NCBI RefSeq assembly: GCF_013315695.1
Contig: NZ_CP054353.1
From: Escherichia coli
Lineage (GTDB): Bacteria; Pseudomonadota; Gammaproteobacteria; Enterobacterales; Enterobacteriaceae
DNA length: 64,000 nt
Direction: 5' to 3' (one strand)
Shown here: in pieces, positions 318 through 58,003 of the stretch
Position numbering within the stretch: the stretch's first letter is position 1
Layout: every line of letters starts with the position of its first letter
Translations under genes and position numbers: made by a program
The notes under the pieces: generated by a model
Databases searched by the model: none
Told to the model about the DNA's origin: nothing
Seen by the model: the letters and a program-made list of their open reading frames with translations, nothing else

Positions 318-470
318 TGCCTGATGCGCTGGGCAACAAAACCTGTAGAAATTATTGCTTTTGTAGGCCAGATAAGGCGTTTACGCCGCATCCGGCATCT
401 GAGCATGATGCCTGATGCGACGCTGGTCGCGTCTTATCAGGCCTACGACTTTCTCCGCATCCGGCATAAA
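318..470. repeat. REP/BIME cluster (several repetitive extragenic palindromic units)
   Basis: Seen directly: units tgcctgatgcgacgctggtcgcgtcttatcaggcctac and inverted gtaggccagataaggcgtttacgccgcatccggca, matching the E. coli REP consensus. Confidence 0.8.
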
Positions 471-2122: not shown

Positions 2123-3172
2123 TTATTTCCTGATAGGCAGGTAAACCGAGAACTCGGTATGACCTGGCCAACTGGTAAATTCAATTTTGCCTGAATGCTG
2201 ATCAATCAAATTACGGGCGATGGATAAGCCAAGCCCGGTGCCACCTTCGCGGCCGCTGACCATCGGGTAAAACAGCGTATCCTGCAAATGAGGCGGAATG
2301 CCCGGCCCGTTATCTTCCACATCAATCCGCGCCGCCAGCCGATAGCGCTCGCCGTGTAAGGTCAGTTGAAACGCTGTGCGGGTACGCAGAATGATTTCAC
2401 CACCCTCCGGCCCCAGCGCCTGTAGCGCATTGCGCACAATATTCAGCAAGACCTGTTCAATTTGATCCGGGTCGTGCGCCAGTTCCGGCAGGCTGGGATC
2501 GTAATCACGAATCAACCGCACGTTGTCCGGCAGTTCCATCGACACCAGCGTCACCACGCGTTCAGCCACTTTGTGAATACTTTCGGTAACGTGCGTACCG
2601 GGCAGCTGCGGCCCCAACAGACGGTCGACCAGATTTCGCAGCCGGTCCGCCTGTTCGATAATCACTTTGGTATATTCGAGTAGTGACGGGTCAGGTAATG
2701 CCTTGCTGAGTAGCTGCGCCGCGCCACGTAAACCGCCAAGCGGATTTTTAATCTCATGCGCCAGGCCGCGCACTAAATCACGGGCAGCAACCTGCTGGGC
2801 GTGCTGTAGCTGTTCCTGACTTAAGCGGCGCTGGTTATCCATCGGTGCCATCTCCAGCAGGATCATGCCGTCCGGCATACGCTGAGCCGTCACAGAAAGG
2901 ATATGCGAGCGCCCGTCGATGACCAGCGTCACTTCGTTATCGGTAAAACCTTGCCCCGCCTCCAGACTTTCTTGCATCAGCTCGATATTTAATGAGAAGT
3001 AGCTCAACAGTTCCGGTAACGGCGTACCAAACAATTTGCGGGAGCTTTGGGCGAGCAGTTGTTGCGCGGCGGGGTTGGCGTAATGGATCGCCAGATTGTC
3101 ATCGATTAACAAAATACTGTTAATCAGCGAGTTGAGGATCTGCCCAGCATCGGGCTGCGTGCCTGTTGCCAT
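2123..3172 (-). CDS. glnL: nitrogen regulation sensor histidine kinase NtrB
   Basis: 349-aa ORF with H-box [17 protein letters not shown] and ATPase G-boxes; immediately upstream of glnG. Confidence 0.93.
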
Positions 3173-3192
3173 AAAGCAGTCTCCTGAACAGG

Positions 3193-3210
3193 TTGCACCA
3201 TTTTAGTGCA
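3193..3210. promoter_or_regulatory. NtrC-binding palindrome in glnL promoter region
   Basis: ttgcaccattttagtgca resembles the NtrC consensus TGCACCA-N-TGGTGCA; lies between glnA stop and glnL start. Confidence 0.55.
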
Positions 3211-3258
3211 TTATAGCTTTTTACGGATAAAAAGCGCGAAGCATCAGAGAATTGACGG

Positions 3259-3286
3259 AGAAAAAAGCCCATGCAGAGATGGGCTG
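3259..3286 (-). terminator. Rho-independent terminator of glnA
   Basis: Minus-strand hairpin agccca-tctctgca-tgggct followed by U-run (plus strand aaaaaagcccatgcagagatgggct). Confidence 0.7.
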
Positions 3287-3345
3287 AAAGTTTCCACGGC
3301 AACTAAATCCCGGCGTTGTTGCGCCGGGTAGTACAACTTCAACTA

Positions 3346-4755
3346 TTAGACGCTGTAGTACAGCTCAAACTCTACCGGATGCGGAGTCATACGCACGCGG
3401 TCATCTTCTTCGCGACGCAGAGCGATGTACGCATCGATCGCTTCATCAGTGAACACGCCACCGGCTTTCAGGAACTCGCGGTCCAGATCCAGTTCGTTCA
3501 GTGCTTCTTCCAGAGAGCCTGCAACCTGTGGGATCTCTTTCGCTTCTTCTGGCGGCAGGTCATACAGGTTTTTGTCCATGGCTTCGCCCGGATGGATCTT
3601 GTTTTTGATGCCATCAAGACCGGCCATCAGCAGGGCAGCAAAGCACAGATACGGGTTAGCCGCCGGGTCCGGGAAACGCACTTCGATACGACGTGCTTTC
3701 GGAGAAGAAACCACCGGAATACGGATGGAAGCAGAACGGTTACGCGCAGAGTAAGCCAGCATTACCGGTGCTTCGTAGCCCGGGACCAGACGCTTGTAAG
3801 AGTTGGTGGTCGGGTTTGCCAGGGCGTTAATCGCTTTAGCGTGTTTGATTACGCCGCCAATGTAGTACAGCGCCTGTTCAGACAGACCTGCGTATTTGTC
3901 GCCCGCGAACAGGTTAACGCCGTTTTTAGACAGCGACATGTGGCAGTGCATACCGGAACCGTTATCACCGAACATCGGTTTTGGCATAAAGGTCGCAGTT
4001 TTACCGAAGCGGTGCGCTACGTTGTGCACAACATATTTGTAGATCTGAATTTCGTCAGCTTTTTTGGTCATGGTATTGAAGCGGGTAGCCACTTCGTTCT
4101 GACCAGCAGTCGCTACTTCGTGGTGATGGGCTTCAACCACCAGACCCATCTGTTCCATCACCAGACACATTTCAGAACGAATGTCCTGAGCAGAGTCTAC
4201 CGGCGGAACCGGGAAGTAACCGCCTTTCACTGCCGGACGGTGACCTTTGTTACCACCTTCATATTGGGTGGAGGAGTTCCATGCACCTTCGATATCATCG
4301 ATAGCAACGTGGGAACCGGAGATAGATGATCCGAAACGGATGTCATCGAACAGGAAGAATTCAGGTTCTGGCCCGAACAGTACGGTGTCGGCAATGCCAG
4401 TAGAACGCAGGTAATCTTCAGCGCGCTTCGCAATGGAGCGTGGGTCACGGTCATAGCCTTGCAGGGTGCCAGGTTCAAGGATGTCGCAACGGATAATCAG
4501 GGTAGAGTCGGCGAAGAATGGGTCAATCACTGCGGTGGATGCGTCTGGCATCAGCACCATGTCGGATTCGTTAATGCCTTTCCAGCCGCCAATCGAGGAG
4601 CCGTCAAACATTTTGCCTTCTTCGAAGAATTCAGCATTCACCTGATGAGCAGGGATAGTGACGTGCTGTTCTTTACCTTTGGTATCGGTGAAGCGCAAAT
4701 CAACAAACTTCACTTCGTGCTCGTTCAGCATCGTCAGTACGTGTTCAGCGGACAT
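3346..4755 (-). CDS. glnA: glutamine synthetase type I
   Basis: 469-aa [27 protein letters not shown]...; adenylylation-site region NLYDLPPEE; classic glnALG arrangement. Confidence 0.97.
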
Positions 4756-4927: not shown

Positions 4928-4976
4928 TGCACCAATATAGTGCTTCAATGGAAACATTAAGCACCATGTTGGTGCA
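4928..4976. promoter_or_regulatory. NtrC enhancer sites upstream of glnAp2
   Basis: Palindromes tgcaccaatatagtgctt (4928..4945) and gcaccatgttggtgca (4961..4976), both matching the NtrC dyad. Confidence 0.75.
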
Positions 4977-5127
4977 ATGACCTTTGGATAACCCTTTTTA
5001 TGCTCCGTGAAAGCGATCACAAAGGGACTCTGCAATACTTGTTTGCGGAGGATGTTTGTGATCCTGTTTTGTAGTGCGATTAATCCGTGTACAATAACGC
5101 GCTATTTCTAATGCCTGAGGCAAAGTT

Positions 5128-6951
5128 GTGATCGAAAAATTGCGTAATATCGCCATCATCGCGCACGTAGACCATGGTAAAACCACCCTGGTAGACAAGC
5201 TGCTCCAACAATCCGGTACGTTCGACTCTCGTGCCGAAACCCAAGAGCGCGTGATGGACTCCAACGATTTGGAGAAAGAGCGTGGGATTACCATCCTCGC
5301 GAAAAACACCGCTATCAAATGGAATGATTACCGTATCAACATCGTTGATACCCCGGGGCACGCCGACTTCGGTGGTGAAGTTGAACGTGTAATGTCCATG
5401 GTAGACTCAGTGCTGCTGGTGGTTGACGCATTTGACGGCCCGATGCCGCAAACGCGCTTCGTAACCAAAAAAGCGTTTGCTTACGGCCTGAAGCCGATTG
5501 TTGTTATCAACAAAGTTGACCGCCCTGGCGCGCGTCCTGATTGGGTTGTGGATCAGGTATTCGACCTGTTCGTTAACCTCGACGCGACCGACGAGCAGCT
5601 GGACTTCCCGATCGTTTACGCTTCTGCGCTGAACGGTATCGCGGGTCTGGACCACGAAGATATGGCGGAAGACATGACCCCGCTGTATCAGGCGATTGTT
5701 GACCACGTTCCTGCGCCGGACGTTGACCTTGACGGTCCGTTCCAGATGCAGATTTCTCAGCTCGATTACAACAGCTATGTTGGCGTTATCGGCATTGGCC
5801 GCATCAAGCGCGGTAAAGTGAAGCCGAACCAGCAGGTTACTATCATCGATAGCGAAGGCAAAACCCGCAACGCGAAAGTCGGTAAAGTGCTGGGCCACCT
5901 CGGTCTGGAACGTATCGAAACCGATCTGGCGGAAGCTGGCGATATCGTTGCGATCACGGGCCTTGGCGAACTGAACATTTCTGACACCGTTTGCGACACG
6001 CAAAACGTTGAAGCGCTGCCGGCACTCTCCGTTGATGAGCCGACCGTTTCTATGTTCTTCTGCGTTAACACCTCGCCGTTCTGCGGTAAAGAAGGTAAGT
6101 TCGTAACGTCTCGTCAGATCCTGGATCGTCTGAACAAAGAACTGGTACACAACGTTGCGCTGCGCGTAGAAGAAACCGAAGACGCCGATGCGTTCCGCGT
6201 TTCTGGTCGTGGCGAACTGCACCTGTCTGTTCTTATTGAAAACATGCGTCGTGAAGGTTTCGAACTGGCGGTATCCCGTCCGAAAGTAATCTTCCGTGAA
6301 ATCGACGGTCGTAAACAAGAGCCGTATGAAAACGTGACGCTGGACGTTGAAGAACAGCATCAGGGTTCTGTGATGCAGGCGCTGGGCGAACGTAAAGGCG
6401 ACCTGAAAAACATGAATCCAGACGGTAAAGGCCGCGTACGTCTCGACTACGTGATCCCAAGCCGTGGTCTGATTGGCTTCCGTTCTGAGTTCATGACCAT
6501 GACCTCTGGTACGGGTCTGTTATACTCCACCTTCAGCCACTATGACGACGTACGTCCGGGTGAAGTGGGTCAGCGTCAGAACGGCGTACTGATCTCTAAC
6601 GGTCAGGGTAAAGCGGTAGCGTTCGCGCTGTTCGGTCTGCAGGATCGCGGTAAGCTGTTCCTCGGTCACGGTGCAGAAGTTTACGAAGGTCAGATTATCG
6701 GTATTCACAGCCGCTCTAACGACCTGACTGTAAACTGCCTGACCGGTAAGAAACTGACCAACATGCGTGCTTCCGGTACTGACGAAGCCGTTGTTCTGGT
6801 TCCGCCTATCCGCATGACTCTGGAACAAGCTCTGGAGTTCATCGATGATGACGAACTGGTAGAAGTGACTCCAACCTCTATCCGTATTCGTAAACGTCAC
6901 CTGACGGAAAACGATCGTCGTCGCGCCAACCGCGCACCGAAAGACGATTAA
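5128..6951 (+). CDS. typA: ribosome-associated translational GTPase BipA/TypA
   Basis: 607-aa ORF with GTG start; [10 protein letters not shown]1 motif, DTPGH G3 motif, NKVD G4 motif; EF-G-like domain order. Confidence 0.95.
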
Positions 6952-38240: not shown

Positions 38241-41253
<3,013 letters not shown>

Positions 41254-42090
41254 ATGACCGTATTACATAGTGTGGATTTTTTTCCGTCTGGTAACGCGTC
41301 CGTGGCGATAGAACCCCGGCTCCCGCAGGCGGATTTTCCTGAACATCATCATGATTTTCATGAAATTGTGATTGTCGAACATGGCACGGGTATTCATGTG
41401 TTTAATGGGCAGCCCTATACCATCACCGGTGGGACGGTCTGTTTTGTGCGCGACCATGATCGGCATCTGTATGAACATACCGATAATCTGTGTCTGACCA
41501 ATGTGCTGTATCGCTCGCCGGATCGATTTCAGTTTCTCGCCGGGCTGAATCAGTTGCTGCCACAAGAGCAGGATGGGCAGTATCCGTCTCACTGGCGCGT
41601 TAACCACAGCGTGTTGCAGCAGGTGCGACAGCTGGTTGCACAGATGGAACAGCAGGAAGAGGAAAATGATTTACCCTCGACCGCCAGTCGCGAGATCTTA
41701 TTTATGCAATTACTGCTCTTGCTGCGTAAAAGCAGTTTGCAGGAGAACCTGGAAAACAGCGCGTCACGTCTCAACTTGCTTCTGGCCTGGCTGGAGGACC
41801 ATTTTGCCGATGAGGTGAATTGGGATGCCGTGGCGGATCAATTTTCTCTTTCGCTGCGTACGCTACATCGGCAGCTTAAGCAGCAAACGGGACTGACGCC
41901 TCAACGTTACCTGAACCGCCTGCGACTGATGAAAGCCCGACATCTGCTACGCCACAGCGAGGCCAGCGTTACTGACATCGCCTATCGCTGCGGATTTAGC
42001 GACAGTAACCACTTTTCGACGCTTTTTCGCCGAGAGTTTAACTGGTCACCGCGTGATATTCGCCAGGGACGGGATGGCTTTCTGCAATAA
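41254..42090 (+). CDS. rhaS: AraC-family activator RhaS
   Basis: 278-aa ORF; cupin N-domain and C-terminal AraC HTH. Confidence 0.95.
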
Positions 42091-42163
42091 CGCGAATCTT
42101 CTCAACGTATTTGTACGCCATATTGCGAATAATCAACTTCGTTCTCTGGCCGAGGTAGCCACG

Positions 42164-43012
42164 GTGGCGCATCAGTTAAAACTTCTCAAAGATGATTTTT
42201 TTGCCAGCGACCAGCAGGCAGTCGCTGTGGCTGACCGTTATCCGCAAGATGTCTTTGCTGAACATACACATGATTTTTGTGAGCTGGTAATTGTCTGGCG
42301 CGGTAATGGTCTGCATGTACTCAACGATCGCCCTTATCGCATTACCCGTGGCGATCTCTTTTACATTCATGCTGACGATAAACACTCCTACGCTTCCGTT
42401 AACGATCTGGTTTTGCAGAATATTATTTATTGCCCGGAGCGGCTGAAGCTGAATCTTGACTGGCAGGGGGCGATTCCGGGATTTAGCGCCAGCGCAGGGC
42501 AACCACACTGGCGCTTAGGTAGCATGGGGATGGCACAGACGCGGCAGATTATCGGTCAGCTTGAGCATGAAAGTAGTCAGCATGTGCCGTTTGCTAACGA
42601 AATGGCAGAGTTGCTGTTCGGGCAGTTGGTGATGTCGCTGAATCGCCATCGTTACACCAGTGATTCGTTGCCGCCAACATCCAGCGAAACGTTGCTGGAT
42701 AAGCTGATTACCCGGCTGGCGGCCAGCCTGAAAAGTCCCTTTGCGCTGGATGAATTTTGTGATGAGGCATCGTGCAGCGAGCGCGTTTTGCGTCAGCAAT
42801 TTCGCCAGCAGACTGGAATGACCATCAATCAATATCTGCGGCAGGTCAGAGTGTGTCATGCGCAATATCTTCTCCAGCATAGCCGCCTGTTAATCAGTGA
42901 TATTTCAACCGAATGTGGCTTTGAAGATAGTAACTATTTTTCGGTGGTGTTTACCCGGGAAACCGGGATGACGCCCAGCCAGTGGCGTCATCTCAATTCG
43001 CAGAAAGATTAA
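42164..43012 (+). CDS. rhaR: AraC-family activator RhaR
   Basis: GTG at 42164 gives 282 aa ([13 protein letters not shown]...); the ORF is open from 42053, so a longer form is possible. Confidence 0.85.
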
Positions 43013-44043
43013 TTCGCCATGCCCATGCCGACGATGTTGGCGGCAACAATAATCACCACACAACCGAGGCTCAACACCGTTACCGGACGGCGTCCTGCAT
43101 TGTTCCACTCTTTCAGCACCAGCCCGACGATACCGCCGCACAATACATAGAAGCTCATATGCAGCATCCAGCTGATGTAGTCATACTGCGCCGGAATACG
43201 CGCGTGGCCCCAGGCATAGAAAAAGAATTGCAGATACCACATCAACCCGCCCAGTGCTGAGAGTAACACGTTGTGAATGATCAGCGGTTTTGCCAGCGAG
43301 AAGTCGGCTTTTAGCGACAAATCCTTCACTTTTGCCAGACGAATGAAGCAGAAACCGAGGTTGATGATCGCGCCGCCTCCCATGATGACAACATAGCTTG
43401 GCAGAGCGACATACAGTGGATCGACGCCCAGTGCGGCAGCGGCTTCATGCATCGGTTTTGCGGCGTTCATCGCAAAGGACATCCCGGCAGAGAAAATGCC
43501 GCACATCACCGCCAGCACCAGCCCTTTTTTCAGGTTGAACTCTTCGGCTTTAATGCCCATCTTGCGCTCTTTCAACTGCCCGGCGCGAGTCACAATCCCT
43601 ACGCCAATCAGCGCCACCAGAACGCCGAGCAACGTCATGCGTCCGCCTTCGGTATTAATCAGAACATCGAAATTGCCGTTGATAATTGGCGTCATCAGCG
43701 TACCGACAATCAACGTAATGCCAATGGCGATGCCAATTCCCATCGACATGCCGAGATAACGCATGGTCAGGCCGTAGTTGATATTACCGATCCCCCACAT
43801 AGCGCCGAACAGAAAAACAGGCAGCAGCGTAGAGAGACTAAACGAGCTGTAATACGCCCAGAAATTCGGCAGTAACAGGGCGCTGATGGCCCACGGCAGA
43901 ATAATCCACGAAACAATCCCACCAACTGACCACATGGTTTCCCATGACCATTTTTTTACTTTTTTGAACGGAGCGTAAAAACAGGCTGCACTGGCCGCGC
44001 CGATCAAATGCCAAAATATCCCCATCGTAATCGCGTTACTCAT
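43009..44043 (-). CDS. rhaT: L-rhamnose:H+ symporter
   Basis: 344-aa 10-[31 protein letters not shown]. Confidence 0.95.
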
Positions 44044-44229
44044 CTTCTTATCCTCATCATTTTTCGTCGCGTCACATCTCCGACGAGATGAGTGTAAAAA
44101 TCGTGCTGTCGATTAACCTTTCGCCTGTTGCCGCCGCTGCCGATTTACTGGCAATCACGGCATTAAGTGGGTGATTTGCTTCACATCTTGGGCATTTTCC
44201 TGCAAAACCATACCCTTACGAAAAGTACG

Positions 44230-44275
44230 GCATTGATAATCATTTTCAATATCATTTAATTAACTATAATGAACC
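44230..44275 (+). promoter_or_regulatory. sodA promoter with Fur-box-like motif and -10 element
   Basis: gataatcattttcaatatcatt (Fur-box-like) and tataat at 44265..44270. Confidence 0.6.
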
Positions 44276-44327
44276 AACTGCTTACGCGGCATTAACAATC
44301 GGCCGCCCGACAATACTGGAGATGAAT

Positions 44328-44948
44328 ATGAGCTATACCCTGCCATCCCTGCCGTATGCTTACGATGCCCTGGAACCGCACTTCGATAAGCAGACCATGG
44401 AAATCCACCACACCAAACACCATCAGACCTACGTCAACAACGCCAACGCGGCGCTGGAAAGCCTGCCAGAATTCGCTAACCTGCCGGTTGAAGAGCTGAT
44501 CACCAAACTGGACCAGCTGCCAGCAGACAAGAAAACCGTACTGCGCAACAACGCTGGCGGTCACGCTAACCACAGCCTGTTCTGGAAAGGTCTGAAAAAA
44601 GGCACCACCCTGCAGGGTGACCTGAAAGCGGCTATCGAACGTGACTTCGGCTCCGTTGATAACTTCAAAGCAGAATTTGAGAAAGCGGCAGCTTCCCGCT
44701 TTGGTTCCGGCTGGGCATGGCTGGTGCTGAAAGGCGATAAACTGGCGGTGGTTTCTACTGCTAACCAGGACTCCCCGCTGATGGGTGAAGCTATTTCTGG
44801 CGCTTCCGGCTTCCCGATTGTGGGCCTGGATGTGTGGGAACATGCTTACTACCTGAAATTCCAGAACCGCCGTCCGGACTACATCAAAGAGTTCTGGAAC
44901 GTGGTGAACTGGGACGAAGCAGCGGCACGTTTCGCGGCGAAAAAATAA
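44328..44948 (+). CDS. sodA: manganese superoxide dismutase
   Basis: [20 protein letters not shown]...; metal ligands His27, His82 and the DVWEHAYY motif. Confidence 0.97.
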
Positions 44949-45005
44949 TCATTTGCCGCCTGCTGCAATGAGGCGTTTACGTCGCATATCAGCTTAAAAA
45001 ATGAA

Positions 45006-45036
45006 CCATCGCCAACGGCGGTGGTTTTTTTGTGAT
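45006..45036 (+). terminator. Rho-independent terminator of sodA
   Basis: ccatcgcc-aacg-gcggtgg hairpin followed by ttttttt. Confidence 0.75.
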
Positions 45037-45068
45037 CAATTTCAAAATAAAAACAATGATCCGATAAA

Positions 45069-45088
45069 AATAAAACAGTGTTTCAATT
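45069..45088. promoter_or_regulatory. KdgR-operator-like palindrome upstream of kdgT
   Basis: aataaaacagtgtttcaatt matches the KdgR consensus AATRAAAYRNYRTTTYATT at 18 of 19 positions. Confidence 0.6.
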
Positions 45089-45207
45089 GATGTGGTTTTG
45101 ATCACTTTTATTGATCAAATGAATGTCTATCTTCGTTTCCATCAACACTGATGCTCCGTTGAGGAATGACGCATCAGCCCTTAAAAATATGCCGACAGGT
45201 GATGGAA

Positions 45208-46109
45208 ATGCAGATAAAACGCTCGATTGAGAAAATCCCGGGGGGGATGATGCTCGTCCCGCTATTCCTTGGCGCACTGTGCCACACCTTCTCGCCGGAG
45301 GCGGGGAAATATTTTGGATCATTCACCAACGGGATGATTACCGGTACGGTGCCCATTCTGGCGGTGTGGTTTTTTTGCATGGGGGCGTCAATAAAATTAA
45401 GCGCGACGGGAACGGTATTGCGTAAATCCGGTACGCTGGTGGTAACAAAAATTGCCGTCGCGTGGGTGGTTGCGGCAATTGCCTCGCGCATTATTCCGGA
45501 ACATGGTGTTGAAGTTGGATTCTTTGCCGGACTTTCAACGCTGGCGCATTTGTGTTGATGTCATTGGAGTCCGGGCCGCTCATGACGATGATTATTCTGG
45601 GCACTGCCGGGATTGCCTCGTTTGAACCGCATGTTTTCGTCGGCGCAGTATTACCGTTCCTGGTGGGCTTTGCCCTTGGGAACCTTGACCCTGAATTACG
45701 AGAATTTTTCAGCAAAGCGGTGCAGACGCTGATTCCATTCTTTGCCTTCGCGCTGGGCAATACCATTGATTTGACTGTAATTGCCCAGACAGGTTTGCTG
45801 GGGATCCTGTTGGGTGTGGCAGTAATTATCGTGACCGGTATTCCGTTGATTATCGCCGATAAATTGATTGGCGGTGGCGATGGCACTGCCGGAATTGCCG
45901 CTTCCAGTTCCGCAGGGGCCGCGGTAGCGACACCTGTGCTGATTGCAGAAATGGTGCCTGCGTTTAAACCGATGGCTCCGGCAGCAACTTCGCTGGTCGC
46001 GACGGCGGTCATTGTGACTTCGATTCTGGTGCCAATTCTTACCTCTATCTGGTCACGTAAAGTCAAAGCCAGAGCGGCGAAAATCGAAATTTTAGGTACG
46101 GTGAAATAA
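45208..46109 (+). pseudogene. kdgT: 2-keto-3-deoxygluconate permease, disrupted (frameshift with apparent internal deletion)
   Basis: N-terminal part ([13 protein letters not shown]...GLSTLA) stops at TGA 45556..45558; C-terminal part (..[14 protein letters not shown]...KIEILGTVK) continues in another frame from about 45552; about 30 codons appear missing versus the 327-aa protein as remembered. Confidence 0.6.
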
Positions 46110-46257
46110 ACCTGCTTCCTTAATCCCCACAGCCGGATGAACTAACGTTCGTCCGGTTTGCTATTGAGCTCCTGCCTGGATACATACCGCGAAAACAGCA
46201 CGCCTGACATAAAATAAATATGGTCTAATGGGGAAATTTCTCGTGGAGAGGGAACAG

Positions 46258-46932
46258 ATGCGATATCCGGTTGATGTATACACAGGCAAGATTCAGGCTT
46301 ATCCCGAAGGCAAACCCAGCGCAATTGCCAAAATCCAGGTTGATGGTGAGTTGATGCTGACGGAGCTGGGGCTGGAAGGTGACGAGCAGGCGGAGAAAAT
46401 GGTTCACGGCGGGCCAGACAGAGCGCTGTGTCATTATCCTCGTGAGCACTATCTCTACTGGGCGCGGGAATTTCCGGAACAGGCGGAGTTGTTTGTTGCG
46501 CCTGCGTTTGGTGAAAATCTCTCAACCGACGGTCTGACGGAAAGTAATGTTTATATGGGCGATATTTTCCGCTGGGGAGAGGCATTAATTCAGGTCAGCC
46601 AGCCGCGCTCGCCTTGCTATAAACTCAATTACCATTTTGATATCAGCGACATAGCGCAGTTGATGCAAAACACGGGTAAAGTGGGGTGGTTGTATAGCGT
46701 AATTGCACCAGGGTTGGTATCTGCTGATGCGCCACTGGAGTTGGTTTCCCGTGTCAGTGATGTGACCGTGCAGGAGGCTGCCGCCATCGCATGGCATATG
46801 CCGTTTGATGACGATCAGTATCACCGTTTACTCTCCGCCGCCGGGTTATCGAAAAGCTGGACGCGGACGATGCAAAAGCGCCGACTGAGCGGCAAGATCG
46901 AAGATTTTTCCCGCCGGTTGTGGGGAAAATAA
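46258..46932 (+). CDS. yiiM: MOSC-domain protein YiiM
   Basis: Start MRYPVDVYTGKIQAY; 224 aa; conserved Cys in SQPRSPCYKLN. Confidence 0.9.
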   Translation: MRYPVDVYTGKIQAYPEGKPSAIAKIQVDGELMLTELGLEGDEQAEKMVHGGPDRALCHYPREHYLYWAREFPEQAELFVAPAFGENLSTDGLTESNVYMGDIFRWGEALIQVSQPRSPCYKLNYHFDISDIAQLMQNTGKVGWLYSVIAPGLVSADAPLELVSRVSDVTVQEAAAIAWHMPFDDDQYHRLLSAAGLSKSWTRTMQKRRLSGKIEDFSRRLWGK

Positions 46933-46940
46933 CCCCCGGA

Positions 46941-47030
46941 GTGTAGGCCTGATAAGACGCTATCGGCGTCGCATCAGGCATCCTGCTCAAATGCCGGATG
47001 CGGCGTAAACGCCTTATCCTGCCTACAATG
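46941..47030. repeat. REP/BIME element
   Basis: gtaggcctgataagacgctatcggcgtcgcatcaggc ... gccggatgcggcgtaaacgccttatcc. Confidence 0.8.
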
Positions 47031-47036
47031 CGGAGT

Positions 47037-48410
47037 TTAACTCCGCTTATACAGCGGCAACCAAATCACCAGCCGTAAACCGCCCAGCGGGCTGTCTTCC
47101 GCCTTCACCCAACCACGGTGCTGCTGAATGGCGGTTTCAACAATCGCCAGCCCCAAACCTGTACCGCCAGATTCACGATCGCGCGCTTCATCGGTACGAT
47201 AGAACGGGCGGAAAATCTGTTCGCGATCTTCCGGGCTAACGCCAGGACCATCGTCATCCACCGTAATGGTGATACCGTCTTTATCTACCGCGAAGCCTAC
47301 TTCAATCTTCGTATGGGAATAACGCAGGGCATTACGAACAATGTTTTCCAGCGCACTTTCCAGGGCGTTCGGGTTGCCGTACAGCGGCCACGGCCCAGGC
47401 GGGAAGTTAACTGTCAACGACTTGCCCATTTGCTCGGCTTCGAACGCCGCGTTATCCAGCACTTCACTCCACAACTGATTGGCTTTGATGGTCTCGCTAA
47501 CCAGCGCGTTTTTCTGCTGATTACGTGACATCACCAACAGGTCGTTAATCATGCTGTCCAGACGTTGCGCTTCGGTTTCAATACGCTCCAGTTCCTTGCT
47601 TTCACCGCTACGACGGCGCAGTAACGCCGTACCCAGTTGTAGACGCGTCAGCGGGGTGCGCAGCTCGTGAGAGATATCAGAAAGCAGACGCTGCTGAGAG
47701 GTCATCATGCGCTCCAGCGCGGTGACCATCTGGTTAAAACTGGCACCAGCGGCAAGGAATTCCTGTGGCCCCGCTTCCAGTTCCGGGTGCTGGCGTAAGT
47801 TTCCCTGGGCAACTTCATCGGCAGCGTTTTTCAGCTTACGCGCCGGTTTTGCCAGACTCCAGGCCAACCACAACAGCAGCGGCGTACTGACCAACATGGT
47901 GACAATCAGCAGTAATAGCGGGCGGTCAAACAGTAAGTTAATGAAATCGGATTGAGAACTGCTGGCCGGACGAATCAGATAAAGTTGGTAATTATCTTCG
48001 CCATCACGCACGGAGAACGGACCGACCAGTTCCACGCGGCCATACTTTTTCTTCTGCGGATGATCGGCGTTATCGGCCTGACCAATAAAGTTACGAATGA
48101 TCTGCATTTCGCTGCGTTCAGCGCCGATCACGCGGCCTTCGGTGGTCACCAATAACAAACGCTGTCCTGGCGGTGCCCACTTATCAATCGCCCGGAACAG
48201 ACGCCGCCACCACATTAAATCATTGGGCGGATCGTTCGCCAGCTCCGCTTCGACATGCTGCTCAATCATCAGACCCTGACGCTGTTCGCTATCCAGAAGC
48301 TCGGTCATCTGGCGTGAATCGAGCTTGGGTAACATCAAAACCAACATCAACACCAGCGCCAGCGTCAGCCAGAAGATGGCGAAGATGCGCGCGGTTAAGC
48401 TGCCTATCAT
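47037..48410 (-). CDS. cpxA: envelope stress sensor histidine kinase CpxA
   Basis: 457-aa ORF; H-box SHELRTPLTRL; N, G1 and G2 boxes. Confidence 0.95.
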   Translation of the reverse strand: MIGSLTARIFAIFWLTLALVLMLVLMLPKLDSRQMTELLDSEQRQGLMIEQHVEAELANDPPNDLMWWRRLFRAIDKWAPPGQRLLLVTTEGRVIGAERSEMQIIRNFIGQADNADHPQKKKYGRVELVGPFSVRDGEDNYQLYLIRPASSSQSDFINLLFDRPLLLLIVTMLVSTPLLLWLAWSLAKPARKLKNAADEVAQGNLRQHPELEAGPQEFLAAGASFNQMVTALERMMTSQQRLLSDISHELRTPLTRLQLGTALLRRRSGESKELERIETEAQRLDSMINDLLVMSRNQQKNALVSETIKANQLWSEVLDNAAFEAEQMGKSLTVNFPPGPWPLYGNPNALESALENIVRNALRYSHTKIEVGFAVDKDGITITVDDDGPGVSPEDREQIFRPFYRTDEARDRESGGTGLGLAIVETAIQQHRGWVKAEDSPLGGLRLVIWLPLYKRS

Positions 48411-49105
48411 GAAGCAGAAACCATCAGATAGCCGCGACCACGCAAGGTTTTAAACCACGGGTGACCATCTTTACGATCCGGCAGTTTACGACGCAGGTTG
48501 GAAATGTGCATATCAATAGCGCGGTCGAAAGGCGTCAGGCGTTTGCCCAGCACTTCCTGGCTTAAATGCTCACGGGAAACCACCTGACCCAGATGCTGTG
48601 CCAGCAAATAGAGCAGGGTAAACTCAGTGCCGGTTAACTCCAGCGTTTGCCCGTCGAAGCTGGCTTCCTGACGGCCTGGATTCAGCACTAAGGCATCAAC
48701 TTCCAGTGTCGGTGAACCGTTGTCGTTGTTTTGCTGTTGCTCGCTCCAGTGCGAACGGCGCAGGATCGCGCGAATACGTGCCACCAGCTCACGATCATTA
48801 AACGGTTTCGGGAGATAGTCATCTGCGCCCAGCTCAAGGCCGAGAACGCGATCAAGTTCACTGCCGCGCGCCGTCAACATAATGACAGGCGTCTGGTGTG
48901 TCTGGCGAAGTGCTTTTAATGTGTCGATACCATTTTTCTTCGGCATCATTACATCAAGCAAAAGTAAATCAATGCTGTCGTCCAGAAGATCAAGCGCCTG
49001 TTCCCCATCGTGGGCAACAATCACGTTGAAGCCTTCCATCTCGAGCAGCTCCTTTAATAGGGAAGTCAGCTCTCGGTCATCATCAACTAACAGGATTTTA
49101 TTCAT
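48407..49105 (-). CDS. cpxR: OmpR-family response regulator CpxR
   Basis: 232-aa ORF MNKILLVDDDRELTSLL; winged-helix C-domain; overlaps cpxA start. Confidence 0.95.
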   Translation of the reverse strand: MNKILLVDDDRELTSLLKELLEMEGFNVIVAHDGEQALDLLDDSIDLLLLDVMMPKKNGIDTLKALRQTHQTPVIMLTARGSELDRVLGLELGADDYLPKPFNDRELVARIRAILRRSHWSEQQQNNDNGSPTLEVDALVLNPGRQEASFDGQTLELTGTEFTLLYLLAQHLGQVVSREHLSQEVLGKRLTPFDRAIDMHISNLRRKLPDRKDGHPWFKTLRGRGYLMVSAS

Positions 49106-49160
49106 TGTTTAAATACCTCCGAGGCAGAAATTACGTCATCAGACGTCGCTAATCCATGAC

Positions 49161-49175
49161 TTTACGTTGTTTTAC
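49161..49175. promoter_or_regulatory. CpxR box in divergent cpxR / cpxP promoter region
   Basis: tttacgttgttttac is the reverse complement of GTAAA-N5-GTAAA; an extra GTAAA at 49205..49209. Confidence 0.7.
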
Positions 49176-49254
49176 ACCCCCTGACGCATGTTTGCAGCCT
49201 GAATCGTAAACTCTCTATCGTTGAATCGCGACAGAAAGATTTTGGGAGCAAATG

Positions 49255-49755
49255 ATGCGCATAGTTACCGCTGCCGTCATGGCCTCAACGCTGGCAGTCA
49301 GTTCATTAAGCCACGCTGCTGAAGTCGGTTCAGGCGATAACTGGCATCCGGGTGAAGAACTTACGCAGCGCAGTACGCAGAGCCATATGTTCGACGGCAT
49401 AAGTTTAACCGAACATCAGCGTCAGCAGATGCGAGATCTTATGCAACAGGCCCGGCACGAACAGCCTCCTGTTAATGTTAGCGAACTGGAGACAATGCAT
49501 CGCCTTGTCACCGCAGAAAATTTTGATGAAAACGCTGTGCGCGCACAGGCAGAAAAAATGGCGAATGAGCAAATTGCTCGTCAGGTTGAGATGGCAAAAG
49601 TCCGCAACCAAATGTATCGCCTGTTAACGCCGGAGCAGCAAGCGGTTTTAAACGAGAAACATCAACAACGAATGGAGCAGTTGCGCGACGTGACGCAATG
49701 GCAAAAAAGTTCATCGTTGAAGCTATTGAGTAGTAGCAACTCACGTTCCCAGTAG
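49255..49755 (+). CDS. cpxP: periplasmic Cpx pathway inhibitor/adaptor CpxP
   Basis: [21 protein letters not shown] signal peptide; two LTxxQ motifs (LTEHQ, LTPEQ). Confidence 0.93.
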
Positions 49756-49759
49756 TAAA

Positions 49760-49822
49760 CCCTGTTTTCCTTGCCATAGACACCATCCCTGTCTTCCCCC
49801 ACATGATGTGGGGGTTTTTTTT
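49760..49822 (+). ncRNA. cpxQ: cpxP 3'UTR with terminator; expected source of CpxQ sRNA
   Basis: cccccacatgatgtggggg hairpin plus U-run at 49796..49822; CpxQ is known to be processed from the cpxP 3'UTR; boundaries approximate. Confidence 0.5.
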
Positions 49823-49903
49823 ATCCTCAATTTGCCTGCTGCTTAATGCATTGCAGATGATTTGCTTCCGTTATACTACCGTCAGTTGATAGCGGGAGTA
49901 TTT

Positions 49904-50806
49904 ATGAATCAATCTTATGGACGGCTGGTCAGTCGGGCGGCGATTGCTGCGACGGCGATGGCTTCGCTGCTATTGCTGATTAAAATTTTTGCATGGTGGT
50001 ATACCGGGTCGGTGAGTATTCTCGCCGCGCTGGTGGATTCGCTGGTGGATATCGGCGCGTCGTTGACGAATTTATTGGTGGTGCGATATTCCCTGCAACC
50101 TGCCGACGATAATCACTCGTTTGGTCACGGTAAAGCTGAGTCCCTCGCGGCGCTGGCGCAAAGTATGTTTATCTCCGGTTCGGCACTATTCCTGTTTTTG
50201 ACAGGTATTCAACATCTGGTATCTCCAACGCCGATGACAGATCCAGGCGTCGGGGTTATCGTGACAATTGTGGCGCTAATTTGTACGATTATCCTTGTCT
50301 CGTTTCAGCGTTGGGTGGTGCGCCGGACGCAAAGCCAGGCGGTGCGGGCTGATATGCTACATTACCAGTCTGATGTTATGATGAACGGCGCAATTCTGCT
50401 GGCGCTGGGGTTGTCCTGGTACGGCTGGCATCGCGCCGATGCTCTGTTTGCATTGGGAATCGGCATCTATATTTTATATAGCGCGTTACGCATGGGATAT
50501 GAGGCGGTACAGTCATTACTGGATCGCGCATTACCTGATGAGGAACGGCAAGAAATTATTGATATCGTGACTTCCTGGCCGGGTGTTAGCGGCGCTCACG
50601 ATCTTCGCACGCGGCAGTCAGGGCCGACCCGCTTTATTCAGATTCATTTGGAAATGGAAGACTCTCTGCCTTTGGTTCAGGCACATATGGTGGCGGATCA
50701 GGTAGAGCAGGCTATTTTACGGCGTTTTCCGGGATCGGATGTGATTATCCATCAGGATCCCTGTTCCGTCGTACCCAGGGAGGGTAAACGGTCTATGCTT
50801 TCATAA
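49904..50806 (+). CDS. fieF: cation-diffusion-facilitator Fe/Zn efflux transporter
   Basis: Start [22 protein letters not shown]; 300 aa; six TM segments plus cytoplasmic domain. Confidence 0.93.
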
Positions 50807-50986
50807 TCAGTATAAAAGAGAGCCAGACCCGCATTTTGTGTATAAAATACCGCCATTTGGCCTGACCTGAATCAATTCAGCAGGAAGTGATTGTTATACT
50901 ATTTGCACATTCGTTGGATCACTTCGATGTGCAAGAAGACTTCCGGCAACAGATTTCATTTTGCATTCCAAAGTTCAGAGGTAGTC

Positions 50987-51949
50987 ATGATTAAGAAAAT
51001 CGGTGTGTTGACAAGCGGCGGTGATGCGCCAGGCATGAACGCCGCAATTCGCGGGGTTGTTCGTTCTGCGCTGACAGAAGGTCTGGAAGTAATGGGCATT
51101 TATGACGGCTATCTGGGTCTGTATGAAGACCGTATGGTACAGCTAGACCGTTACAGCGTTTCTGACATGATCAACCGTGGCGGTACGTTCCTCGGTTCTG
51201 CGCGTTTCCCGGAATTCCGCGACGAGAACATCCGCGCCGTGGCTATCGAAAACCTGAAAAAACGTGGTATCGACGCGCTGGTGGTTATCGGCGGTGACGG
51301 TTCCTACATGGGTGCAATGCGTCTGACCGAAATGGGCTTCCCGTGCATCGGTCTGCCTGGCACTATCGACAACGACATCAAAGGCACTGACTACACTATC
51401 GGTTTCTTCACTGCGCTGAGCACCGTTGTAGAAGCGATCGACCGTCTGCGTGACACCTCTTCTTCTCACCAGCGTATTTCCGTGGTGGAAGTGATGGGTC
51501 GTTATTGTGGCGATCTGACCCTGGCTGCGGCCATTGCCGGTGGCTGTGAATTCGTTGTAGTTCCGGAAGTTGAATTCAGCCGTGAAGACCTGGTAAACGA
51601 AATCAAAGCGGGTATCGCGAAAGGTAAAAAACACGCGATCGTGGCGATTACCGAACATATGTGTGATGTTGACGAACTGGCGCATTTCATCGAGAAAGAA
51701 ACCGGTCGTGAAACCCGCGCAACTGTGCTGGGCCACATCCAGCGCGGTGGTTCTCCGGTGCCTTACGACCGTATTCTGGCTTCCCGTATGGGCGCTTACG
51801 CTATCGATCTGCTGCTGGCAGGCTACGGCGGTCGTTGCGTAGGTATCCAGAACGAACAGCTGGTTCACCACGACATCATCGACGCTATCGAAAACATGAA
51901 GCGTCCGTTCAAAGGCGACTGGCTGGACTGCGCGAAAAAACTGTATTAA
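50987..51949 (+). CDS. pfkA: 6-phosphofructokinase I
   Basis: [31 protein letters not shown] motif; 320 aa. Confidence 0.97.
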
Positions 51950-52004
51950 TGATTTCGGAAAAAGGCAGATTCCTTTAGCCTGAAACCGATGACAGAAGCA
52001 AAAA

Positions 52005-52105
52005 TGCCTGATGCGCTTCGCTTATCAGGCCTACATGAATTCTGCAATTTATTGAATTTGCAAACTTTTGTAGGCCGGATAAGGCGTTCGCGCCGCATCC
52101 GGCAT
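52005..52105. repeat. REP/BIME element
   Basis: tgcctgatgcgcttcgcttatcaggcctac ... gtaggccggataaggcgttcgcgccgcatccggca. Confidence 0.8.
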
Positions 52106-52268
52106 GGACAAAGCGCACTTTGTCAGCAATATGAGGCGGATTTCTTCCGCCTTTTTAATCCCTCAACATATACCCGCAAGTTATAGCCAATCTTTTTTTA
52201 TTCTTTAATGTTTGGTTAACCTTCTGGCACGCTTTGCTCATCACAACACAACATAAGAGAGTCGGGCG

Positions 52269-53258
52269 ATGAACAAGTGGGGCGTAGGGTTAACATTTTT
52301 GCTGGCGGCAACCAGCGTTATGGCAAAGGATATTCAGCTTCTTAACGTTTCATATGATCCAACGCGCGAATTGTACGAACAGTACAACAAGGCATTCAGC
52401 GCCCACTGGAAACAGCAAACTGGCGATAACGTGGTGATTCGTCAGTCACACGGTGGTTCAGGCAAACAAGCGACGTCGGTAATCAATGGTATTGAAGCTG
52501 ATGTTGTCACTCTGGCTCTGGCCTATGACGTGGACGCAATTGCGGAACGCGGGCGGATTGATAAAGAGTGGATCAAACGTCTGCCGGATAACTCCGCACC
52601 GTACACTTCCACCATTGTTTTCCTGGTGCGTAAGGGCAATCCGAAGCAGATCCATGACTGGAACGATCTGATTAAACCGGGTGTTTCGGTGATCACGCCT
52701 AATCCGAAAAGCTCTGGTGGCGCGCGCTGGAACTACCTGGCTGCCTGGGGCTACGCGCTGCATCACAACAACAACGATCAGGCAAAAGCACAGGATTTTG
52801 TTCGGGCACTGTATAAAAACGTCGAAGTTCTGGATTCTGGCGCGCGCGGCTCCACTAACACTTTTGTCGAGCGCGGAATTGGCGATGTACTGATCGCCTG
52901 GGAAAACGAAGCTCTGCTGGCAGCGAATGAACTGGGGAAAGATAAATTCGAAATCGTCACGCCGAGTGAGTCTATCCTCGCAGAGCCAACCGTGTCGGTG
53001 GTCGATAAAGTGGTCGAGAAAAAAGGCACCAAAGAGGTGGCGGAAGCCTACCTGAAATATCTCTACTCGCCAGAAGGTCAGGAAATTGCCGCGAAAAACT
53101 ACTACCGTCCGCGCGATGCTGAGGTGGCGAAAAAGTACGAAAATGCGTTTCCAAAGCTGAAGTTATTCACCATTGATGAAGAGTTCGGCGGCTGGACGAA
53201 AGCGCAAAAAGAGCATTTTGCTAACGGCGGTACGTTCGATCAGATCAGCAAACGCTGA
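52269..53258 (+). CDS. sbp: periplasmic sulfate-binding protein
   Basis: 329-aa ORF with signal peptide; sulfate/thiosulfate-binding-protein fold family. Confidence 0.93.
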
Positions 53259-53278
53259 TTTCTCCAGGATAATTATCA

Positions 53279-53311
53279 AACCCGGTGGTTTCTCGCGACC
53301 GGGTTTTTTAT
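53279..53311 (+). terminator. Rho-independent terminator of sbp
   Basis: aacccggt-ggtttctcgcg-accgggtt followed by ttttttat. Confidence 0.8.
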
Positions 53312-53364
53312 TTGTCACGATTTTGCGTTACCCTTGCATCTCTTTGAGGTACAGGGAAAAAAAG

Positions 53365-54120
53365 ATGAAAAAAGCGGGTCTTCTTTTTTTGGTGATGATA
53401 GTTATCGCCGTTGTGGCTGCCGGTATTGGTTACTGGAAATTAACCGGTGAAGAGTCGGATACATTACGTAAGATTGTCCTTGAGGAATGTTTGCCCAATC
53501 AGCAGCAAAATCAAAATCCTTCGCCATGTGCGGAAGTCAAACCCAACGCCGGATACGTGGTTTTAAAAGATCTTAATGGCCCACTGCAATATCTGTTGAT
53601 GCCAACGTATCGTATTAACGGTACTGAAAGTCCTTTGTTGACCGATCCTTCAACGCCGAACTTCTTTTGGTTGGCCTGGCAGGCGCGTGATTTTATGAGC
53701 AAAAAATACGGCCAGCCGGTTCCCGATCGCGCGGTTTCTTTGGCGATCAACTCTCGCACCGGGCGTACGCAAAACCATTTTCATATTCATATTTCTTGTA
53801 TTCGTCCTGATGTGCGCGAACAGCTGGATAACAATCTGGCGAACATCAGTAGCCGCTGGTTGCCACTGCCAGGTGGTTTGCGTGGGCATGAGTACCTGGC
53901 GCGTCGGGTAACGGAAAGCGAACTGGTACAACGCAGCCCATTTATGATGCTTGCAGAAGAAGTGCCTGAGGCGCGGGAACATATGGGAAGCTACGGGCTG
54001 GCAATGGTACGGCAGAGTGATAACTCATTTGTATTGCTGGCGACACAACGAAATCTACTGACGCTGAACCGTGCTTCAGCCGAGGAAATCCAGGATCATC
54101 AGTGTGAGATTTTGCGTTAA
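53365..54120 (+). CDS. cdh: CDP-diacylglycerol pyrophosphatase
   Basis: Start [20 protein letters not shown] (N-terminal TM); 251 aa; track ORF extends upstream. Confidence 0.9.
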
Positions 54121-54142
54121 GGCGAGGAGTTAAGGAAAGTAA

Positions 54143-54165
54143 GTGCCGGATATGAAATCCGGCAC
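54143..54165. terminator. hairpin between convergent cdh and tpiA
   Basis: gtgccggat-atgaa-atccggcac perfect inverted repeat. Confidence 0.5.
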
Positions 54166-54174
54166 CTGTCAGAC

Positions 54175-54942
54175 TTAAGCCTGTTTAGCCGCTTCTGCAG
54201 CTTTAACGATCACTGCGAAAGCGTCAGCTTTCAGAGAAGCACCGCCAACCAGCGCGCCGTCGATGTCTGGCTGAGCAAACAGTTCTGCAGCGTTAGACGC
54301 GTTTACAGAGCCGCCGTACTGGATGATCACTTGTTCAGCGATGTTAGCGTCAACTTTAGCGATGTGGTCACGGATGAATTTGTGAACAGCCTGTGCCTGA
54401 GCCGGAGTTGCAGATTTGCCAGTACCGATTGCCCATACAGGTTCGTAAGCGATAACCGCACCTTCGAATGCCGCAGCCCCCTGAGTTTTCAGTACCGCGT
54501 CGATCTGACGTGCACAAACTTCTTCAGTTTTGCCCGCTTCGTTTTCCGCTTCGGTTTCACCGATGCACAGAACCGGAGTCAGTCCCTGCTCTTTCAGCAC
54601 CGCGAATTTTTTCGCGATCAGTTCGTCAGACTCTTTGTGGTAAGTACGACGTTCAGAGTGGCCGATGATGATGTACTGTGCGCCGATGTCTTTCAGCATA
54701 GCAGCAGAGGTTTCACCGGTGAATGCGCCGGACAGGTTCAGGTCCACGTTTTGCGCACCCAGCATGATGTGGCTGCCTTCAGCTTCGCGCTTCGCCATAT
54801 CGATGTACATTTCCGGTGGTGCGATTGCAACCGCACAGCCAGCAACACCTGCCAGCTCTTTACGCAGGTTAGAAACCAGCTCGTGAACCATGTGGCGGCT
54901 GCCGTTCAGTTTCCAGTTACCCATCACTAAAGGATGTCGCAT
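54175..54942 (-). CDS. tpiA: triosephosphate isomerase
   Basis: [14 protein letters not shown]; catalytic [12 protein letters not shown] motif; 255 aa. Confidence 0.97.
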
Positions 54943-55049
54943 TTTAATTCTCCACGCTTATAAGCGAATAAAGGAAGATGGCCGCCCCGCAGGGCAGCAG
55001 GTCTGTGAAACAGTATAGAGATTCATCGGCACAAAGGCTTTGCTTTTTG

Positions 55050-55649
55050 TCATTTATTCAAACCTTCAAGCGATTCAGATAGCGCCAGCTTAATCGGTTC
55101 AACAGCGAAGGTCAGCCCCTTTTCGCCGTTGTCCGCGACAACATAACGCAGTGCACCTTCTGTCTCGGTGTAATAACGTTTGTTTTTCCCCGCCGTTAGT
55201 AGCGACTGCAGTTTTTTCTGGCTTTGTGTTTTGGTCATTAATGGGGTGAGTGTGCGGATCACCGCTGCCATGTATTCCTGAGCTTTCGCTTTCGCGGCTT
55301 TTTGCTCTGGCCCCTGGATGGGTAGCCAGGTCATTTGAATGCTTTTGATTTTTAAGGTACCGCGCTCCAGCGCTGTAGAAGCATACAAGTTCTCGTTAAT
55401 TTTACTGGCAGCACGAGTGAGATTGGCTTTGTCGGGACTGCTGTCGATGGCACGAAATTCGTTCAGTGGCAGGCTGGGATTCTGGCTGTTAAAGTCTTCT
55501 CGAAACTGGCTGATGGAGAGATCGAAAGTAGGGGCTCCAGCCAGCAGATAAGGCGCGGTCGTTGCCGTATCTGGTGTTTGTGCATGCGCCGTTGTTGTAA
55601 CGGTTAATGCAGAATATAAGAGAAAAAACAGCGTACACCCTGGCTTCAT
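55050..55649 (-). CDS. yiiQ: periplasmic protein YiiQ (DUF1454)
   Basis: 199-aa ORF with signal peptide MKPGCTLFFLLYSALTVTTTAHA. Confidence 0.85.
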   Translation of the reverse strand: MKPGCTLFFLLYSALTVTTTAHAQTPDTATTAPYLLAGAPTFDLSISQFREDFNSQNPSLPLNEFRAIDSSPDKANLTRAASKINENLYASTALERGTLKIKSIQMTWLPIQGPEQKAAKAKAQEYMAAVIRTLTPLMTKTQSQKKLQSLLTAGKNKRYYTETEGALRYVVADNGEKGLTFAVEPIKLALSESLEGLNK

Positions 55650-55749
55650 TGACAGTACCTTTTGTTATGACTGGCTCCGATTAAAACGATATCTGTCGCC
55701 CTTGTCAAAAGGGTAGAATCCTGGAAAAGACAACCATCAAGGAACTTAC

Positions 55750-56190
55750 ATGACCATACAGCAATGGTTATTCTCATTTAAAGGGCGTATTGGACGCCGT
55801 GATTTCTGGATTTGGATAGGCCTGTGGTTCGCAGGCATGCTGGTGCTTTTCTCACTGGCGGGTAAAAATTTACTCGATATTCAGACCGCGGCGTTTTGCC
55901 TTGTGTGCTTGCTTTGGCCAACAGCGGCAGTAACCGTTAAGCGCTTGCATGATCGCGGGCGTTCCGGCGCATGGGCATTTCTGATGATTGTGGCGTGGAT
56001 GCTGCTGGCGGGTAACTGGGCGATTTTACCGGGTGTCTGGCAATGGGCGGTGGGGCGTTTTGTCCCGACATTGATTCTGGTGATGATGCTTATCGATCTT
56101 GGTGCGTTTGTTGGCACACAAGGCGAAAATAAATATGGTAAAGATACCCAGGATGTGAAGTATAAAGCCGACAATAAATCAAGTAATTAA
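55750..56190 (+). CDS. yiiR: inner-membrane protein YiiR (DUF805)
   Basis: 146-aa hydrophobic ORF; GRIGRRDFW motif typical of DUF805. Confidence 0.85.
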   Translation: MTIQQWLFSFKGRIGRRDFWIWIGLWFAGMLVLFSLAGKNLLDIQTAAFCLVCLLWPTAAVTVKRLHDRGRSGAWAFLMIVAWMLLAGNWAILPGVWQWAVGRFVPTLILVMMLIDLGAFVGTQGENKYGKDTQDVKYKADNKSSN

Positions 56191-56701: not shown

Positions 56702-56727
56702 TGGAGTTGCTTTAGAAGGAGTTAAAC

Positions 56728-57156: not shown

Positions 57157-57160
57157 CCGC

Positions 57161-57907: not shown

Positions 57908-57952
57908 GTTTTTCTCCTGTTTTGATTGACTTGCCTTATCTTCGTTCTCCGA

Positions 57953-57983: not shown

Positions 57984-58003
57984 GGCTCAATCGATCAAAT
58001 CAA

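Follow-up and report, generated by a model that had tools for sequence, protein, structure and literature searches.

The glnA and cpxP tails of an Escherichia coli chromosome very probably yield the known 3′UTR-derived sRNAs GlnZ and CpxQ

The glnA and cpxP mRNA tails in the 64,000-nucleotide stretch of E. coli DNA analysed here (the window) are, with high probability, two known 3′UTR-derived, Hfq-dependent base-pairing sRNAs of Enterobacterales, GlnZ and CpxQ. Both tails share identity with the described RNAs, along with seeds, terminators, folds, complementarity to targets and order-wide conservation. The glnA tail is identified by its sequence as the 85-nt O157-type or Class I form of GlnZ, which is the same RNA as EsrF, and not as the 194-nt GlnZ of K-12. 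The initial annotation had assigned the two 3′UTRs to GlnZ and CpxQ, respectively, and these identities are supported by the seeds and by alignment to K-12 cpxQ. On alignment both seeds are present, that of GlnZ exactly, and CpxQ agrees with K-12 b4716 at 57 of 58 positions.

Results

Parent genes and terminators

The window is chromosomal E. coli DNA. Over 40000..60000 it is 100% identical to strain MSB1_4I, the closest genome for that span, and matches to this region occur in nearly all of 5,426 complete E. coli genomes. The parent gene of GlnZ, glnA, encodes glutamine synthetase (469 aa) on the minus strand at 3346..4755, and its product matches the NCBIfam glutamate--ammonia ligase profile NF007006 over its full length (1048.6 bits). 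In the ORF list the glnA stop codon, TAA, occupies 3348..3346 (minus strand), and glnL, placed by the ORF list and a profile match, lies downstream at 2123..3172 on the same strand. The CpxQ parent, cpxP, is found on the plus strand at 49255..49755 (NCBIfam NF007687 CpxP, 215.3 bits) and ends in a TAG stop codon at 49753..49755. Its 3′UTR is 67 nt long and has a terminator at its end (49796..49822). Strong intrinsic terminators had been proposed to close both 3′UTRs; both were found, and the coordinates first given for them proved right to 1–2 bases.

The glnA 3′UTR matches the short form of GlnZ

The candidate GlnZ (3261..3345, minus strand) constitutes the whole glnA 3′UTR, on the strand of glnA and upstream of glnL. 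Read as RNA from 3345 to 3261, it begins with T, runs from the base after the glnA stop through the last U of the terminator, and matches the published forms in length and ends. A 5′ hairpin with 7 G-C pairs (3309..3328) was detected in a hairpin scan and is present in both the MFE and centroid folds. The seed, UUGCCGUGGAAA, lies behind this small hairpin, 43 nt past the glnA stop and five bases upstream of the terminator; it corresponds to nt 44–55 of the 85-nt RNA (3291..3302, minus strand) and is an exact match to the published seed (PMC9731577). The intrinsic terminator (3261..3285, minus strand) has an AGCCCAT/ATGGGCT stem at 3285..3266, a 6-nt loop and a U-run extending to 3261. Scanning 3100..3600 gave 3 terminator-like sites, against 0.5 expected. 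The 85-nt RNA has a predicted folding energy of −28.3 kcal/mol, with z = −2.27 relative to shuffled controls. Downstream of the terminator, at about 3193..3230 (minus strand), a TATAAT is followed by the palindrome TGCACTAAAATGGTGCA, a site missed by the simple promoter scan. Judged by the NtrC site consensus, it resembles the glnL promoter with its NtrC operator.

At least three types of the E. coli glnA 3′UTR have been described, K-12 (197 nt), O157 (85 nt) and O111 (230 nt), all with the seed (PMC9731577). Walling et al. named the short form Class I and equated it with the EHEC RNA EsrF (bioRxiv 10.1101/2022.04.01.486790), which by RACE is exactly 85 nt long, its 5′ T adjoining the glnA stop codon (PMC8092317). 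The window agrees with this type: over 3150..3420 its identity to E. coli O157:H7 is 100%, and the RNA itself shows no difference from EsrF of O157:H7 EDL933, having the same locus, strand, 85-nt length and ends. The seed, U41 (position 3305), the flhB-binding motif of EsrF, the 5′ hairpin and the terminator are common to both. The host of the window is not O157, unlike EDL933, and one base differs in the EDL933 NtrC footprint quoted inside glnA (ACTGATGAAGC in the window versus ACGGATGAAGC).

The curated K-12 record places glnZ (b4836, 194 nt) directly after glnA. This K-12 form (Class III) has the same parent gene, stop-codon region, seed and terminator sequence, and the same published targets (sucA, glnP and aceE), but differs in the middle. 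Its seed lies about 9 nt past the stop, and an insert of ~150 nt containing REP sequence, absent from the window, separates seed from terminator; conversely, K-12 GlnZ lacks the 5′ hairpin found here. In the O111 type (230 nt; E. coli SCPM-O-B-8794 and others), a 145-nt insert lies between the 5′ hairpin and the seed, breaking the flhB motif, and the seed still adjoins the terminator. By a rough estimate from 30 evenly spaced members of 5,425 complete E. coli genomes, the short form accounts for about 16, the O111 type for 5 and the K-12 type for 8.

Origin of the 85-nt RNA

A different origin and role have been proposed for the same RNA. In that account a separate promoter within the 3′ part of glnA gives rise to EsrF as a primary transcript, which NtrC represses and high ammonium induces. 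The RNA would act chiefly by binding the flhB 5′UTR through GGGAUUUAG, thereby raising flagellar gene expression and virulence. Jia et al. (2021) obtained exactly the 85-nt RNA by 5′/3′ RACE and found it to be TEX-resistant; its level was unchanged in a glnA-promoter mutant, an NtrC footprint was observed upstream, and gel shifts were obtained with flhB (PMC8092317). The window tail contains GGGAUUUAG unchanged (3303..3311, minus strand), identical to the motif in PMC8092317, as well as the longer EsrF stretch CGCCGGGAUUUAGUUGCC (3315..3298, minus strand). These findings of Jia et al. on the O157 allele contradict a model of processing and low-nitrogen induction.

Other reports on this allele point the opposite way. 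Walling et al., working on EHEC EDL933, found EsrF to be induced by nitrogen deprivation, like GlnZ, and to repress glnP, sucA and aceE through the seed (bioRxiv 10.1101/2022.04.01.486790), and Miyakoshi et al. observed that the O157-type RNA, like the other types, was induced with glutamine as the nitrogen source (PMC9731577). In the window, no sigma-70-like promoter was detected on either strand of 3100..3600, using a strict scan that also misses the known glnL promoter region, and the best −10 candidate upstream of 3345, judged by eye, is TACTAC, without the final T. The flhB motif overlaps the 3′ arm of the predicted 5′ hairpin, and among the matches listed in the species comparison described below it occurs in the glnA 3′UTRs of 0 of 93 other species. 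The motif is thus confined to this E. coli allele, in contrast to the order-wide sucA/glnP seed. Neither the promoter scan nor the placement of the motif in a hairpin arm is decisive, and a role in flhB regulation and one in sucA/glnP regulation are not mutually exclusive. We consider it unlikely that the RNA originates from an internal promoter and serves mainly to bind flhB, and favour release of the short GlnZ from the glnA mRNA.

The 5′ end bears on this point. The RNase E motif, reportedly RN↓WUU as defined by Chao et al. in 2017, is fitted only partly by U3345 (followed by AG) when inspected by eye, so the GlnZ 5′ end is uncertain by a few bases.

The cpxP 3′UTR contains CpxQ

CpxQ (49765..49822, plus strand; 58 nt) matches the curated K-12 MG1655 ncRNA cpxQ (b4716) at 57 of 58 positions, and the K-12 record likewise has a length of 58 nt and a start nine bases after cpxP. 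The lone difference, A49806 in place of C, falls in the terminator loop. A cpxP 3′UTR feature had been drawn at 49760..49822 in the initial annotation; its 3′ end stands, and its 5′ limit, 5 nt upstream of the curated CpxQ start at 49765, does not.

The 5′ seed region R1, UUUUCCUUGCCAUA (49765..49778, plus strand), starts after ...CCCUG and is unpaired in the predicted fold. It is followed by an internal hairpin, AGACA-CCAUCCC-UGUCU (49778..49794, plus strand), identified from the fold, which carries the second conserved C/U-rich region, R2, around CCCUGUCUUCCCC. The exact limits of R1 and R2 follow secondary sources. The intrinsic terminator shared by CpxQ and cpxP (49796..49822, plus strand) comprises an 8-bp stem, CCCCCACA/TGTGGGGG, and a 3-nt loop (49796..49814), followed by T8 to 49822 (U8 in the RNA). 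Overall, the predicted fold leaves nt 1–13 single-stranded ahead of the 5-bp hairpin and the terminator (−17.4 kcal/mol, z = −2.74 versus shuffles). CpxQ of K-12 (b4716) and Salmonella thus shares with the window RNA the locus, strand, 5′ end after CCCUG, seeds, hairpin and terminator. In E. coli, CpxQ is a 58-nt species processed by RNase E (bioRxiv 10.1101/271551; PMC10250213).

Complementarity to known targets

Duplexes were calculated against target 5′UTRs taken from K-12, not from the window strain. The GlnZ seed forms 10 bp with sucA −44..−33 (−18.3 kcal/mol), and 0 of 500 shuffled seeds did as well; with glnP −22..−12 it forms 9 bp (−14.7 kcal/mol), a value reached by 8 of 500 shuffles. 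For CpxQ, nt 1–14 pair with cfa −136..−127 at −14.1 kcal/mol, and 9 of 500 shuffles were as good. This cfa site is the one mutated by Bianco et al., and the 5′ sequence UUUUCCUUGCC holds C5, C6 and U7, the bases that the same authors mutated to abolish cfa regulation (bioRxiv 10.1101/271551). Longer GlnZ segments (nt 36–60) and the CpxQ R2 segment gave duplexes that were not significant relative to shuffles. Whole-RNA duplex folding of GlnZ or CpxQ against long target regions yielded energies no better than those of shuffled RNAs. The method takes no account of intramolecular structure and permits long loops, which made it uninformative, and seed-segment duplexes were used instead.

Conservation of GlnZ across Enterobacterales

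One genome per species was searched for the GlnA C-terminus by a degenerate pattern that leaves the UTR unconstrained, giving at least 120 species or loci. Among the matches listed, the seed (at most one mismatch, within 330 nt past the stop) is present in 93 of the 120 species and in 93 of the 99 Enterobacterales with uncut downstream sequence, the order being assigned by organism name; it was found downstream of glnA in 0 of 19 other Gammaproteobacteria (Cellvibrio, Idiomarina, Marinomonas and others). Where these listed matches have the seed (93 species), the distance from stop to seed varies from 8 to 230 nt, and the terminator is nearly invariant (AGCCCATC-NNNN-GATGGGCT-TTTTTC). The seed sits 3–6 nt upstream of that terminator in 91 of the 93 listed, the exceptions being E. 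albertii, which is of the K-12 type, and one Citrobacter. Six Enterobacterales among the listed matches had no seed within 330 nt of glnA (two Rosenbergiella, Pectobacterium betavasculorum, Enterobacter sp. BIGb0383, a Pantoea symbiont and a MAG); the sRNA may have been lost there, or the UTR may extend further.

A minimal GlnZ of about 50–60 nt can be delineated from these sequences, consisting of a U-rich linker, the seed, CUUUYAG and the terminator. The window GlnZ corresponds to this minimal module plus the small 5′ hairpin, and a similar 5′ hairpin is found in the glnA 3′UTRs of Enterobacter cloacae, E. asburiae and E. quasihormaechei.

Conservation of CpxQ in metagenomes

Metagenomes were scanned with a pattern drawn from CpxQ itself. 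This gave 120 loci, and 104 of them carried sufficient flanking DNA. Over these 104 loci the CpxQ body has a column identity to the window of ~1.00, compared with 0.36–0.83 for the last 150 nt of the upstream cpxP ORF and 0.30–0.63 for downstream DNA, although part of this invariance arises by construction, since the loci were picked by a pattern within the sRNA. Bases that the pattern did not require (5′ UUUU, UAGACACC) are invariant too, and the 5′ seed is constant in 104 of 104. The window 58-mer is the commonest form among the 104, and the A49806 form is commoner than C in the metagenome loci. Every locus has an ORF ending 6–62 nt upstream, and the CpxP-like C-termini of these ORFs are very different from one another. 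According to PMC9438474, conservation is stronger in the cpxP 3′UTR than in cpxP; our sample, being biased, backs that statement without proving it.

Within the CpxQ terminator stem, several versions with compensatory changes were observed in the metagenome loci (A-U, U-A and G-C at the sixth pair). For the covariation score, 2 of 500 shuffles gave a higher value, and a slide of +1 scored equally; column-wise covariation is weakly informative here because the stem register shifts between variants. In the internal hairpin, 5 of 5 pairs are kept in 19 distinct variants, but these pairs hardly vary, so the kept pairing is no evidence for structure.

Trans-acting RNAs or decay fragments

The same features can be set against a null model in which both tails are ordinary 3′UTRs with terminators, their small fragments being decay intermediates with no trans-acting role. 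Any gene with an intrinsic terminator leaves a somewhat stable 3′ fragment, near-identity within E. coli is expected because the genomes are closely related, and PGAP annotates no RNA at either locus in the RefSeq genomes listed, only glnA/glnL and cpxP. Such a model does not account for the retention of the 12-nt GlnZ seed in 93 of the 99 Enterobacterales listed despite the shifting distance from the stop (8–230 nt), given a chance expectation, by our own arithmetic, of ~7e-4 per sequence (a 12-mer with at most one mismatch in 320 nt). The CpxQ body is also more conserved than the adjoining coding sequence, in loci chosen by a pattern inside the sRNA, and compensatory mutations have been published for sucA, glnP, aceE and cfa (bioRxiv 10.1101/2022.04.01.486790; PMC9731577; bioRxiv 10.1101/271551). 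We regard the null model as highly improbable, and the two tails as GlnZ and CpxQ.

The two terminators differ in their mode of variation: that of CpxQ swaps base pairs freely, unlike that of GlnZ, whose core (GCCCAT..ATGGG followed by TTTTTC) shows no compensatory pair changes in the 93 seed-bearing species among the matches listed. Such invariance suggests that the GlnZ terminator may be under a constraint beyond hairpin formation. A second role might lie in binding a protein (Hfq or some other), in additional base pairing, or in DNA-level signalling to the glnL promoter downstream. That the stem has a second, sequence-specific role and that, separately, GGGAUUUAG provides the O157-type allele with a lineage-specific second pairing site is rather unlikely in our estimation.

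Rfam matches and the strand of CpxQ

At gathering thresholds, Rfam 15 has no family at either the glnA or the cpxP tail. Permissive thresholds recovered only a sub-threshold match to Ysr49 and a wrong-strand match to Hrs1. The Yersinia family Ysr49 (RF02766) aligns with the GlnZ seed and terminator on the same strand (3261..3365; 34.1 bits versus a gathering threshold of 95), and Ysr49 is probably the Yersinia homologue of GlnZ under another name.

Hrs1 (RF02628), known from Erwinia, covers the CpxQ region in the cpxP–fieF spacer and is the best Rfam match there, but its model aligns with the minus strand (49750..49822, 44.5 bits versus a gathering threshold of 56.4). Taken at face value, this would place an RNA on the strand opposite to cpxP. 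In Erwinia amylovora, however, Hrs1 is listed in the cpxP–fieF interval, oriented like the two genes, with a Rho-independent terminator (PMC4070566). The Rfam consensus opens with an A run followed by the complement of the terminator stem, a layout indicating that the model is strand-flipped (reverse-complemented). In the window, the minus strand has no T-run after the hairpin, and the terminator scan lists the plus strand only; published CpxQ Northern blots likewise imply a plus-strand origin. An RNA from the minus strand is hardly conceivable on these grounds. Hrs1 looks like the CpxQ of Erwinia represented by a reverse-complemented model, and CpxQ is placed here on the plus strand.

Elsewhere in the window, a full-length Rfam match to the ES222 sRNA (135.3 bits; 4939..5046, plus strand) occupies the spacer between glnA and the plus-strand ORF at 5128..6951. 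Lying on the strand of that ORF, it is likely a 5′ leader element. Four further matches exceeded their thresholds, at 366..443 (plus strand) and at 46946..47023, 52027..52068 and 27457..27515 (all minus strand); they comprise two copies of naRNA4 (REP-derived), ES036 and the SECIS_3 selenocysteine insertion element.

Discussion

Taken with the literature, the two tails can be fitted into known regulatory circuits, and both RNAs would be expected to be expressed in the window strain, to bind Hfq, to be processed by RNase E and to regulate their targets. Under nitrogen limitation, NtrC would activate glnA, whose mRNA would end at the terminator at 3285..3261, and the last ~85 nt would be released as O157-type GlnZ; in K-12 and Salmonella the release is made by RNase E near the stop codon. 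The seed, predicted to be single-stranded between the 5′ hairpin and the terminator, would pair with the 5′UTRs of sucA, glnP and, in E. coli, aceE. Repression of these targets may reduce the consumption of 2-oxoglutarate and the import of glutamine at a time when glutamine synthetase is being produced. GlnZ requires RNase E and Hfq, RNase E dependence having been shown with the K-12 and Salmonella glnA mRNAs (PMC9731577), and for the EHEC form, low-nitrogen induction and repression of sucA, glnP and aceE have been reported (bioRxiv 10.1101/2022.04.01.486790). Since the RNase E work concerned the K-12 and Salmonella mRNAs and Jia et al. report an internal promoter, we infer the biogenesis of the O157-type RNA from these relatives.

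For CpxQ, inner-membrane stress would lead CpxR to activate cpxP, and RNase E would cut the mRNA after ...CCCUG, between 49764 and 49765. The 58-nt CpxQ so freed would use its 5′ seed and its internal C/U-rich seed to repress the nhaB, skp and cfa mRNAs. In published work RNase E, together with Hfq, releases CpxQ from the cpxP mRNA, and CpxQ represses nhaB, skp, cfa and other targets (PMC9438474; bioRxiv 10.1101/271551; PMC10250213).

GlnZ and CpxQ are nothing new, both being already described, named and curated in K-12, and the main value of the present analysis is one of annotation. The automated RefSeq annotation labels neither locus and no Rfam 15 family for GlnZ or CpxQ reaches threshold here, and genome scans will therefore keep rediscovering both RNAs. 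The O157-type allele is also the one for which biogenesis and inducing signal have been reported differently by different groups. Knowing that the short O157-type GlnZ is the form present here helps in interpreting phenotypes of nitrogen and carbon regulation or of motility in E. coli strains other than K-12.
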